Shown here piece after piece: positions 6,900 to 32,981 of a stretch of DNA of 64,000 bases (its first letter is position 1; every line of letters begins with the position of its first letter). The stretch lies in assembly GCA_964016885.1 (NCBI GenBank), contig OZ024742.1:331328001-331392000 (forward strand). Reading direction: 5' to 3'. The position numbers were made by a program, and so were the translations under genes. A model generated the notes under the pieces. That model was not told the origin of the DNA, searched no databases, and saw only the letters and a list, made by a program, of their open reading frames with translations. The DNA comes from Eledone cirrhosa (taxonomy: Eukaryota).

Positions 6900-6940
6900 C
6901 GGTGCTGATGATAGCTAACAAGCTTGAAACTAGTACATCG
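6900..6940 (+). ncRNA. Minimal type I hammerhead ribozyme
   Basis: CGGTG-CTGATGA-TAGCT(AACA)AGCTT-GAAA-CTAG-TA-CATCG: stem I CGGTG/CATCG, palindromic stem III ACTAGT, GUA cleavage triplet. Confidence 0.88.
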
Positions 6941-7429
6941 TTCCTGTGTCAGTGTTGAACAAAAAGGTGACGTGGTTGCCTTAACACCGTATGGCATAAA
7001 TTCAGGATGTTCGCTTTTTTGACAAACAAACGAACAAAGTGGCCGGCGTTATAATAAACGTCGACTAAACTGATGCGTGTATATATGTATGTGTACCTGT
7101 ATGCAATGTGTATATATATATATATATATATATATATATATATATATATATATATATATATATATATATATATATATATATATATATATATATATGCATG
7201 CTACTGTACGTCTGTATACATATATGTATGTACGTATACATACTTACATTTAAGTAAGTGCCATACTAAGAGTGAGAAATGAAATTTCGTTTTCATTTTT
7301 TCAACTTATCGTTTTCGGTATGCCTGACCGATTTAACTCACTCAATATGCAAATTAGGCTGCTCAGCCGTTAATTTTCATAAGGAAAGTATATACTTTCG
7401 AACGTTCAACTATCTGGCAGATGGGTAAA

Positions 7430-7470
7430 CGGTGCTGATGATAGCTAACAAGCTTGAAACTAGTACATCG
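7430..7470 (+). ncRNA. Minimal type I hammerhead ribozyme (second copy)
   Basis: Identical to 6900-6940, 530 bp downstream. Confidence 0.88.
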
Positions 7471-7575
7471 TTCCTGTGTCAGTGTTGAACAAAAAGGTGA
7501 CGTGGTTGCCTTAACACCGTATGGCATAAATTCAGGCTGTTCGCTTTGTTGACAAACAAACGAACAAAGCGGCCG

Positions 7576-9412
7576 ATATACCAACTAGATCGCCCACCCT
7601 ATCCACCGCCCGCCAACCGCGAGCTGGAAGAAAAACTCTCGAGACTAAAACATTCCGTATTTAACATCTTACGGAAACAGAAGAAGATGGCCCCTAACCT
7701 CTCCAGGACACAACAACTCGCCCTGAAGAACCTACGTAATAAGGAACTTATTTACTTACCATCCGACAAAGGTAAAGAGTTCTGCGTCATCTCTCAAGCC
7801 ACATACAATAACCTAGCCTTCGAACACCTAAGCAACAGTGAACTGTACACAGTGATCCCGGACATGACCGCAGCCCAAATCGAAAAACAGACCAACTCCA
7901 TTTGGTTCGATATCTGTAGGAGAAGACAACTCCCGAATAAAATTAAACTCAACTACACCACTAGAAATAGCAGACTGCCTACTTTCTACCACCTCATCAA
8001 GACCCACAAGAATAGCACTAAGACGCATATAAGACCCATCGTCTCTAGCATAGAAGGACCCCTATACAAAATTTCCTGGCTTCTCTCCCAGGTCCTCAAG
8101 CCTCTACTCTCCACCTTCCCCGGACATGTCAGTAGTTCCGACGAAGTTATACGTAGATTACACCAACTCCAGCCAGAACAACTTAAACTTAATAAATACG
8201 CTTTTAGCCTCGACGTTGTCTCCCTCTACACTACAGTCCCCGCTCACCCAGCTGTCGATTTATTGACGGACTGCGTGGTCGCAGAGAACATCCACTGCTA
8301 CGGCCTCCACCCGACGGACATACACCAACTTTTGTCCTTCACAGTAGACAACACGTTCTTCACCTTCCACCAGCACACATACAGACAGACAACAGGATTA
8401 CCCATGGGATCCAGCCTCTCTGGCCTGCTGGCCATCACTTACATGAACCAACTAGAATGCCGAGCCCTCAACACCTGCCATTCCCATGCCTTCTTCACCC
8501 GATATGTAGATGACATACTCATCCTTACATCATCCCGTGAAGAGGAAGAGAAAATATACACAACATTCTCCAGCATGGACGCCAGTATAAAGTTCAGCAT
8601 AGAACACCCCGATGACCGCGGATCCCTATCCCTGCTGGACTTCCAACTCAGGGTAACAGAGGAAGGCAACATCCACACCTGCTTCTATAAAAAAATCCGC
8701 CAGCAGGGACCTGTTCGTACATTTCAGATCGGCCCTCCCACTCGGTGCCAAGTTCGGATACATAAAGAACGAACTGGCACGTATCAAGAACAAATGCACC
8801 GACGCCAGAGACCGAGACACACACACCACACATTTCCTGGAAGTACTCAAACTGAACGGATACACGACATCCACCACAAACCGTGCCAGAAAGAACAGAG
8901 GACACCACACCCGAGGCACTAACACTTGCTTCCTGAAGCTCCCACACTTCAGTGAAGAAACAACAACAGCCATCCGCAGAGCCATCAGACGAGAAGGTCT
9001 AGATATTCAACTGGCCCATTCGGGTCCTTCTTTACGTGGACGGCTAGCTAAGAGACACTCCACCAGACATGACAACTGCTGCAGACTAGCCAACTGCCCC
9101 ATCAACGACACAGACCTATGCCACCAGGCTTACGTAGTTTACAGACTAGAGTGTGACAAATGCAACAACTTCTACGTAGGTAGCACCACCAGACCACTCC
9201 ACATAAGAATAAAAGAACACCTCAATACTAACGCTTCCTCATTTAAGAAACACCTAGTTAAATGCAAAAACACTGATAAAAACATAACAGTTAGGATAGA
9301 AACTAAAGAAAGAAACCTCGGCAATCTTAGAATCAAGGAAGCACTCATTATAGATAGAACACATCCACCAATCAATAATAGACTAGAGCTCAACACCCAA
9401 TTTATAACCTGA
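7576..9412 (+). pseudogene. Penelope-like element ORF: reverse transcriptase + C-terminal GIY-YIG endonuclease; 5'-truncated, one frameshift
   Basis: RT motifs PSDKGK, IKTHK, RPIVS, SLDVVSLYT, GLPMGSSLS, RYVDD. One extra A in the run at ~8689-8695; removing it gives FYKKSASRDLFVHF...CPINDTDLCHQAYVVYRLECDKCNNFYVGSTTRPLHIRIKEH...RIKEALII...IN, stop at 9410-9412. Confidence 0.93.
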
Positions 9413-9968
9413 TAGGGCCTCTAGCCCCACTTTACGCACCCCACACACACGCACGCGCACACCTCCACTTATTCTCTCTCACACATACACACACAAAACC
9501 AGTTCTAACACTAGATAACACCTACCCCTCACTTTTACGATTAGACCTATCTTCCCACACTCACACACACACACCCACATACCTACACCTTCATGCTTTC
9601 TCCCACACACATATACAGGCACGCATATAAAATTTAAAAAACACAACAAAAACATAAACAAACCCCTCTTAAAGGGAGACTACTCTTTACCCACCTAATT
9701 TTAATTCTTTGATATTAAAGTTAGAACTCTATACTATTTCCGGTCAGCATGGCTTCATTGGAAATTTAAGACGCTGGTCTGAGACTTTTACTTCCCTCCG
9801 AAGAAGAGATATTATCTCGAAAATTAAGGACATTTAAATAAATTCAAGGTGAAAGACGAATTCTCATCAATATCTCTCACTATTGCATTCTTTTTTCTAT
9901 GTCCATATCTGCATTGTCTTGGCCTTATTACACATATTCTAACGTTTATATATATATATATATATATA
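7576..9968 (+). mobile_element. Penelope-like retroelement including 3' UTR, ending in (TA)n
   Basis: ORF as above, followed by ~530 bp non-coding sequence and a (TA)n tract. Confidence 0.85.
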
Positions 9969-10668
9969 TGTGTGTGTGCGTGTGTATGTACGTCTGTTAT
10001 GCAAAAACCAACCAGAGAAGCTTTCGTGGATGACCGGAGTATGCATACCATGCTGAAATAACAGCCAAGCACAAGGACTCGTACATTGTTGGTAGAACTT
10101 TGTCCTTCAAACATCACCTTCTTTTGCCACTCCCATATGATCGCCCTTGCCTATAACATTTTTCAAAAAGGTCCTCATTAATTGAAAAATAACGAGGTCC
10201 AACAATGTCGGAACACTTCCAAATAACTGCCGGCTCAACCTCTGGATGCCTGTGTTTGACGTTGAAATGTAAGTGGAGATGAAAGGATCATTTATTTTCG
10301 TAATCCTATTAAGAGAAACCCTTGGCTTCATTGTGCTCAGTTTTCAGAACATGTCTATCATGGGCAATTTGAACAGAAATTCATTCTGTGTGGAATTTTG
10401 AGAGAGGGGGGGGGGGGGGGGCTGAATAGTGACCTTGTCCTTACGGTCATTCTGTGAACGATACATTTTATGTTCAACAAATGTGGTGATTATATAATGC
10501 TTTGCAATCCTGATGTACCCTATGTCTGTTTAAGAATTATTCGTGTGCAGAGAGTATTAGTATCATTTTCGATTATTAAGCAGTATTTTGTTCTCATATA
10601 TATATATATATATATATATAATGAAATGACAAGAGGCTGGATTTGTGTAAATCCTTGAAAGGTTTATT

Positions 10669-31500: not shown

Positions 31501-31822
31501 TACCTATTTTTTACCTACTCTTACCTAATCCCATTATCTTATCTACTCTTGTCTGTTCTCTTAACCATGTGTCTACTCTTGTCTGTTCTCTTATCCATGT
31601 GTATGCTTGTATGTAACTATATGTTGACAGCACCCCGCCCAACTGTGACTGATAGCACCCCTTATTCTTATTTTTATTTTTATTTTTATTTTTACTTTTA
31701 TTTTTATTTTTATTTTTATTTTTATTTTTATTTTTATTCTTATCCTCTATCGTCTATTGTTACCTTTCATTCTTCAATGTCTTGGATTTGTTATTGCTTG
31801 TATGGTATGTAATTAACCTTTA

Positions 31823-31868
31823 TGCTCTGATGAGTCCCACTTATAGTGCGGATGAAACAATGTTAGCA
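31823..31868 (+). ncRNA. Minimal type I hammerhead ribozyme
   Basis: Same motif as 28469-28514 on the plus strand. Confidence 0.82.
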
Positions 31869-32304
31869 AGTAAAGATATGCATATGCTATAAGCGTTCTT
31901 TGTTATTTATTTATTATATTACGGCTCTGTCCTCAGACATTGAGCTAACCTCATACTGCCTGCTGGATAAGTGGAGTGTTATACACCCCTGATCCTTTCC
32001 CTAGCATACTATATATATATATATATATATATATAAACGGATACAATGAAACAAAATTTCATTTCCCACTCTTAGTACGGCTGTTACTTAAATATACGTA
32101 TGTACACGTACATACATATATGTATACAAACGTACTGTAGTATGTATATATATATATATACATGCATGCACACATATATATACGTACGTATGGATTCACC
32201 GAACAGTTATTATAATGCTCGGTGTGTTTGTAAACAAACATCCCGTATTAAGCCGTAGTGTCTAGCAACCATCGTTGCTCGTTTGTTCAACACTGAAAAA
32301 GGAA

Positions 32305-32345
32305 CGCTGTACTAGTTTCAAGCTTATTAGCTATCGTCAGCAACG
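32305..32345 (-). ncRNA. Minimal type I hammerhead ribozyme
   Basis: Reverse complement CGTTG-CTGACGA-TAGCT(AATA)AGCTT-GAAA-CTAG-TA-CAGCG. Confidence 0.88.
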
Positions 32346-32940
32346 TATAACTTCCTGCCAGATTGTTGAACGTATATACTTACCTTATGCATATTAACTG
32401 CTGAGTAGCCCAATTTGCATATCGAGTGGGTTAATCGGCCGAGTGCACCGAAAGCGATAAACGGAAAAAATGAATCGACATTTCATTTCCCACTCTTAGT
32501 ACGGCTGTTACTTAAATGTAAGTATGTACACGTACATACCTATATGTAAACAGACGTACAGTTGTATGTATATATATATATACATACATGCACACACACA
32601 CACATATATGTATATATATATATATATATATATATATATATATATATATATATATATATATATATATATACATATATATATATATATATATATATATATG
32701 TACGTATGGATTCACCTAACATTTATTTACGTCTGTCTACATATATGTATGTACGTGTACATACTTATATTTAAGTAACAGCCGTACTAAGAGTGGGAAA
32801 TGAAATTTCGTTTCATTTTTTCCGTTTATCGTTCTCGGTGCACCCGGCCGATTAACCCACTCGATATGCAAATTGGGCTCCTCAGCCGTTAATATGCATA
32901 AGGTAAGTATATACGTTCAACAATCTGGCTTGAAGATATA

Positions 32941-32981
32941 CGTTGCTGACGATAGCTAATAAGCTTGAAACTAGTACAGCG
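32941..32981 (+). ncRNA. Minimal type I hammerhead ribozyme
   Basis: CGTTG-CTGACGA-TAGCT(AATA)AGCTT-GAAA-CTAG-TA-CAGCG. Confidence 0.88.

Follow-up and report, generated by a model that had tools for sequence, protein, structure and literature searches.

A U·U mismatch at the base of helix II in hammerhead motifs of several repeat families of Eledone cirrhosa

The 64-kb stretch of the Eledone cirrhosa genome analyzed here (the window; contig OZ024742.1, positions 331,328,001 to 331,392,000) contains hammerhead ribozyme motifs in which the first pair of helix II, 10.1-11.1, is U·U in place of the usual G-C. In established hammerhead chemistry this pair serves for stacking next to A9·G12 and takes no catalytic part. 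The motifs are type I hammerheads in small retrozyme-like or Penelope-derived repeats and are likely self-cleaving; in several unrelated families a fixed U·U is probably tolerated as a wobble. The mismatch is the consensus of the families that carry it and is not decay. The variant itself is known, is active in axolotl and is spread across phyla. What is new here is its abundance, since U·U is the largest hammerhead class of this genome or is level with G-C.

Hammerheads with U·U in the window

The window was searched with a hammerhead descriptor in which positions 10.1 and 11.1 were left free. In it, 11 type I hammerheads have both an intact core and U·U; they are spread over four families (A-D), compared with a mean of 0.01 and a maximum of 1 in 200 block shuffles of the window. 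The intact copies have the CUGANGA core, GAAA, an NUH site and three helices with helix I open. Their cores are at +6905, +7435, +32946 and -32340 in family A, +10867 and -10722 in family B, +15327, +15637, +15947 and +16257 in family C, and +22408 in family D. Four more U·U copies are damaged (+13084, -21579, -35182 and +28035). The window also has four G-C hammerheads (+34998, -33756, -13473 and +9798) and two G·U hammerheads (+31827 and -28510). Copies are arranged in tandem arrays or inverted pairs:

6898..6942, + strand: family A type I hammerhead (descriptor and Rfam HH9 alignment), U·U at 6912/6925, helix II insert of 14 nt, helix III with the palindrome ACUAGU, cleavage predicted after 6935
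7428..7472, + strand: second tandem copy of family A, U·U at 7442/7455
10669..10726, - strand: inverted partner of the family B hammerhead, U·U at 10715/10685
10863..10920, + strand: family B hammerhead with a long helix II, U·U at 10874/10904, AUGAUCAU helix III
13080..13131, + strand: damaged copy of family B, deletion within the 3' strand of helix II
13423..13485, - strand: comparison G-C hammerhead with a long helix I
15094..16426, + strand: retrozyme-like family C array of 310-bp tandem units, ~4.3 copies, >99% identical; four hammerheads with U·U and ACGCGU helix III, U10.1/U11.1 of the first copy at 15334/15347
21534..21584, - strand: damaged copy of family D, U4 to A, U·U retained
22403..22453, + strand: family D hammerhead, U·U at 22415/22427, non-palindromic 5-bp helix III, could fold as a monomer
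28028..28070, + strand: family F copy (core 28035), family core U3-A8, its own U4 to A, U·U at 28042/28055, ACCGGU helix III, weak helix I
31823..31868, + strand: comparison G·U hammerhead, inverted partner at 28469-28514 on the minus strand
32304..32346, - strand: inverted partner of the family A' hammerhead, U·U
32940..32982, + strand: family A' hammerhead, CUGACGA core, U·U at 32953/32966
34993..35037, + strand: comparison G-C hammerhead, inverted partner at 33717-33761 on the minus strand
35140..35186, - strand: damaged copy of family E (core 35182), A6 to G, U·U retained

A sequence-only reading of the window had quoted five U·U motifs, and all of them are present. Each is a type I hammerhead with helices I, II and III, GAAA and an NUH site, and the positions quoted (6900, 32941, 15321, 10863 and 22387) fall 4-21 nt upstream of the actual cores. 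Its recurrence in four families stands, but the four G-C and two G·U hammerheads of the window had been left out of the comparison.

Register, family consensus and abundance

In families A and C the helix II insert is 14 nt long, and its six-nucleotide loop reads UAAYAA. The G-C family N matches family A in the length of this insert, in its loop and in helix III, and its flanks are homologous to those of A (z 22 upstream and 5-6 downstream). In narrow scans Rfam HH9 aligns U·U with the pair that opens helix II; the scores are 17-18.5 bits, whereas gathering requires 52. Since a G-C sister of the same anatomy exists and the alignment gives the same register, U·U is a substitution for G10.1-C11.1 and not a bulge. 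A reading with a bulged U, that is, an extra U after A9 followed by a normal pair, was compared by eye with families A, B, C, D, E, G and J, where it fails within 1-3 pairs. One family that it does fit is K (1/100 T..T rows among the matches listed).

The likeness to Rfam Hammerhead_HH9 (RF02275) covers the core, the 4-bp helix II with its 6-nt loop and helix I, which align; in contrast, all scores on Hammerhead_1 (RF00163) and HH9 are below gathering. The whole-window Rfam scan gave no U·U hit, and the G-C copies of the window fail too (23.5 bits on RF00163 against 34). A paired 10.1-11.1, which is usual in hammerheads and not obligatory, is absent from the U·U copies. The expectation that strict searches miss the motif is therefore borne out by the scan, and the available text of Perreault 2011 (PMC3088659) describes a filter that rejected 10.1-11.1 mispairs by default.

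Pattern counts were made over the 3.0-Gb assembly (1,796 contigs), and base shares within lists of matches were counted by eye. Among motifs whose helix III is ACNNGU, U..U has 44,781 genome matches against 17 in the control. U10.1 with a non-U at 11.1 has 457 matches (control 33), of which about 30/100 among the matches listed are U-A revertants, and a non-U at 10.1 has 17,105 (control 370). In the class with the 14-nt insert, pairs 10.2-10.4 are paired in 15/15 distinct U·U sequences, with switches among A-U, U-A, G-C and G·U. The helix I pairs are kept in 13-15/15, with four pair types at pair 3, so that compensatory changes are present in the helices of the U·U hammerheads; the 15 sequences are mutually related and the changes are not independent events. 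In contigs from 4/4 public runs N7 and loop 2 vary, and no other letter is present at 5% or more at either U. Since U..U is far above its control, few copies have a non-U at 11.1 and the neighboring pairs covary, U·U is not the result of decay. This agrees with the earlier argument against random decay, for which a Watson-Crick family consensus had been named beforehand as the contrary outcome; the consensus seen is U·U.

Two weaker candidates of the sequence-only reading also belong to U·U families. The one at 35136 is the damaged minus-strand copy of family E, in which 18/19 distinct sequences have U·U. The one at 28028 is the damaged copy of family F, a small family for which 25/25 exact genome matches to the 3' half have U11.1 and 10/10 fetched copies have U10.1. 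Several families of the genome have the U3-A8 covariant core, some closed by G-C and some by U·U (L131, L155, L077, L161-L170).

The T..T pattern has 105,760 genome matches (control 2,991) and the G..C pattern 42,169 (control 8,632); these patterns take an insert of 12-22 nt and any helix III, so that families with a long helix II are missed, and because family K fits a bulge the first count slightly overstates U·U. A sample of 57 evenly spaced 10-kb stretches (570 kb), searched with an inclusive descriptor at a score of 10 or more, gave 55 hits compared with 3 in the reversed control. Four doubtful U·U rows were removed (three satellite rows in L139 and one in L064). The remaining 51 hammerheads comprise 16 U·U, 13 G-C, 12 A-U, 7 G·U and 3 others, with four bulged G-C rows and one A·C row classed as G-C. 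A first descriptor (n=40: U·U 15, A-U 11, G-C 5, G·U 5, other 4) under-counted bulged G-C and was replaced. U11.1 is present in 35/51 sampled hammerheads, and the broader trait is U at 11.1. Censuses that demand a 10.1-11.1 pair or Rfam thresholds would miss ~100,000 hammerhead motifs in this genome.

Flanks were compared among 11 representatives, a set that family F is outside. Six U·U groups have no detectable mutual flank homology: A (with A'), B, C (with J), D, E and G. The unrelatedness of A, B, C and D claimed from the window is thus upheld. Families C and J have related flanks and both are U·U, whereas the length of helix II and the type of helix III vary among families B, D, E and G. 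The clade of A includes a C·A subfamily (76/100 among the matches listed, of 1,182), C-G copies and its G-C sister, which means that at least one switch at 10.1-11.1 happened. Family C includes an array that is A-U and whose flanks are identical, and pairs of G-C and G·U subfamilies recur in the genome catalogue. These pair changes within clades suggest that wobble-type mismatches are tolerated. They also provide natural near-isogenic series at 10.1-11.1 (G-C, C-G, C·A and U·U in the A clade; A-U and U·U in family C), which make the cost of the mismatch and a route through CpG decay directly testable. The C·A subfamily is dispersed, with roughly 900 copies, and its cut is predicted after U in the 5 distinct sequences compared.

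Precedents, origin and effect of the mismatch

The available text of Perreault 2011 (PMC3088659) reports a natural U10.1-U11.1 hammerhead variant and cites Ruffner 1990 for U-U as the most active mispair. The mismatch and the numbered positions are the same as here; the variant is rare there, whereas it is a major class in this genome. In axolotl, HHR_Amex2 of the non-LTR retrozyme Rtz_353 has ~60,000 copies with U·U at the base of helix II, according to the accessible part of PMC7229834. Its monomer self-cleaves to 22% and its dimer much more efficiently; a sister monomer, in which helix III also differs, reaches 6%. HHR_Amex2 resembles the present families in being type I, with a tandem repeat of ~350 bp, U·U, tens of thousands of copies and a short helix III. 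It differs in that it is one family with measured cleavage, whereas the present genome has at least six families that are unrelated by flanks and predicted to cleave; in some of them helix II is long or helix III is of the monomer type. The portion of Cervera and de la Pena 2014 (PMC4209133) available describes hammerheads of Penelope-like elements (PLEs) with a highly conserved G10.1-C11.1 and a one-sided bulge after A9. These share the type I fold, the palindromic helix III and the dispersed, inverted or tandem copies; the U·U families differ in being symmetric and do not refold as a bulge plus a pair. In its Fig. S3, 2/56 rows (Hydra magnipapillata and Drosophila willistoni) appear to have U on both sides of helix II, in a machine-read text with GAAA displaced. 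That U·U is peculiar to this lineage, or unreported, is not supported, given the two published variants and apparently also these rows. The biochemical surprise is small because the variant is already known. The accessible text of the pairwise-mutagenesis paper PMC9901934 gives no figure for the 10.1-11.1 pair. A title and abstract search, with subscription papers not covered, found no prior report of U·U as the leading class in several families or of a link to CpG.

In nearest-neighbor folding of families A-D, helix II is ~3-4 kcal/mol less stable with U·U than with G-C. Helix II of family A is retained, with a pair probability of 0.91-1.0. Attenuation of cleavage by U·U is plausible on these models. 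In families A, B, C, F and G helix III is palindromic and would let tandem transcripts cleave as dimers, and families D and E, with 4-5 bp in helix III, could cleave as monomers. The unit RNAs would then circularize and be copied back by the Penelope reverse transcriptase (RT), as published PLE and retrozyme papers propose. Dimer cleavage through a palindromic helix III is described for PLE and retrozyme hammerheads, and the available text of preprint 10.64898/2026.07.22.740005 also covers circularization and RT copying. ViennaRNA two-unit models of A or C gave no inter-unit helix III; the model is unsuited to this topology, and the result speaks neither for nor against dimers.

In G-C hammerheads, C11.1 and G12 form a CpG, and the genomic data suggest a source for U11.1. 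In one G-C family of 29,092 copies, G12 is changed in 568 copies (86/100 to A among the matches listed) and C11.1 in 580 (69/100 to T among the matches listed), while the non-CpG G8 is changed in 286 (59/100 to A among the matches listed). The estimated transitions are ~490 at G12 and ~400 at C11.1 vs ~170 at G8, which is about a 3-fold CpG excess. The CpG observed/expected ratio is 0.63. A steady supply of U11.1 from CpG decay makes a change from G-C to G·U, and then to U·U directly or through A-U, a likely path. U·U may have become common by amplification of the families that carry it and not through a job of its own. A wider claim is that methylation has reshaped the ribozyme core genome-wide. 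CpG decay at C11.1-G12 would give either a tolerated U11.1 or a dead G12, lineages with U11.1 would escape the hazard, and many unrelated families would have converged on U·U as the preferred end state, with G-C displaced. This claim is tentative and rather unlikely.

Several points weigh against a tolerated wobble that arose in this way. Helix II of family C is weak in folding (-0.6 kcal/mol, pair probability 0.15-0.17) and competes with a UUUC:GAAA hairpin. Cleavage and expression of these RNAs are predictions from sequence. U·U recurs far more than other mismatches, with one C·A subfamily seen, an excess that would agree with a degree of selection among mismatches. The effect of CpG is modest and was measured in one family, where G·U copies are no commoner than dead G12 copies and no amplification of G·U is apparent. 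CpG decay accounts for U11.1 and not for U10.1. It is also not a requirement, since D. willistoni has little CpG methylation and yet seems to possess a U·U family. A tblastn search with one 900-aa PLE protein, over 160 loci and the window (~1.3 Mb), found no U·U hammerhead downstream of the PLE match. Within this set no U·U is thus seen in the terminal repeat of a coding PLE, so we infer the mobilizing enzyme.

The mismatch could instead have been selected as a brake, with a weak helix II sparing long transcripts or circles, cleavage needing a dimer or a protein, and several families converging. The modeled cost of ~3-4 kcal/mol in families A-D is consistent with this, as is the rarity of the U-A revertants, which are one step away and exist (~30/100 among the matches listed, 457 in total). 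In addition, U10.1 makes UUUC in families C and E, which is complementary to the core GAAA (folding shown for C). However, in axolotl the monomer of the U·U family reaches a higher level of cleavage than that of its sister (22% compared with 6%, PMC7229834), A-U, G·U, C·A and G-C relatives were amplified too, dependence on a dimer is already enforced by the palindromic helix III, and U·U also occurs in D and E with a stable helix III. A selected brake is unlikely. It is far less probable that the motifs are dead or decaying ribozymes carried as passive passengers in repeats that no longer need cleavage. A damaged core or helix in 4/15 U·U copies of the window would fit decay, but cores are intact across divergent subfamilies while helices covary, the arrays are >99% identical, and therefore young, and the available text of PMC7229834 reports an active U·U family.

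The other alternative concerns history. U·U may be ancestral in one old Penelope/retrozyme hammerhead clade whose flanks have since diverged, in which case there was no convergence. Families A, C and F have the 14-nt insert and UAAYAA loop in common, UUC/GAA occurs in helix II of both C and E, C and J are related by flanks and both U·U, and U·U appears in the Hydra and D. willistoni PLE rows. On the other hand, the nearest relative found for A is G-C, and B, D, E and G are unlike in helix II length and helix III type. The UAAYAA loop is also found in G-C families; therefore, it marks a tertiary contact and not a U·U clade. A single old origin seems slightly less likely than the selected brake. 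It is compatible with the mechanism of a tolerated wobble, which remains the preferred explanation.

Retrozyme traits and neighboring elements

The repeats of families A and C have several traits of non-LTR retrozymes: they are short, non-coding, tandem and low in GC, with one type I hammerhead per unit. Tandem spacings are ~420-540 bp in family A, family C units are 310 bp, and the local GC is 28-34%. One looped 340-nt contig corresponding to one family C unit is present in each of three runs labelled as other organisms (X4-X6), and X1 has 489 pieces. The looped contigs could come from related species, carry-over or a unit-length circle; tandem DNA gives them equally.

A PLE adjoins family A and has its own hammerhead:

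7573..9980, + strand: 5'-truncated PLE with RT and GIY-YIG, frame shift near 8690, abutting the end of the family A repeat
9795-9829, + strand: PLE terminal-repeat hammerhead (at 9798), CCGAAGA core (U4C), bulged A, G10.1-C11.1, AAUU helix III, 3-bp helix I

The U4C/G-C hammerhead is identical in 30/30 loci of a young PLE family (frames to ~900 aa, 95-99% identical). U4C is known from a viroid variant. A fixed U4C core escapes CUGANGA searches. Since the PLE carries its own, different hammerhead in 30/30 loci, family A is ruled out as the terminal repeat of the adjoining PLE.

The stretch 6269-9980 holds an inverted fragment of family A together with two A units and the 5'-truncated PLE, all joined in a single orientation; the overlap, at 7573-7575, is 3 nt. 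Family A is upstream of the PLE in 3/30 loci; L043 has a similar join within the (TA)n tract of A, and in L046 A is ~360 nt upstream. The junction could be a template switch of the PLE RT onto retrozyme RNA. Alternatively, it may have arisen through insertion into shared microsatellite targets.

At 28418-31919 there is an inverted pair of 1.1 kb, 97% identical, with a G·U hammerhead at the end of each arm. It is likely to be one PLE-derived insertion.

The window is AT-rich, with many (TA)n tracts, retroelement fragments and one satellite. A non-LTR retrotransposon occupies 42389-45859 and 46205-47813 on the minus strand, with an open endonuclease-RT frame of 1,156 aa plus upstream frames. The satellite, at 54400-64000, has units of 65-73 bp, a higher-order period of ~1,960-2,025 bp and a strong GC skew.

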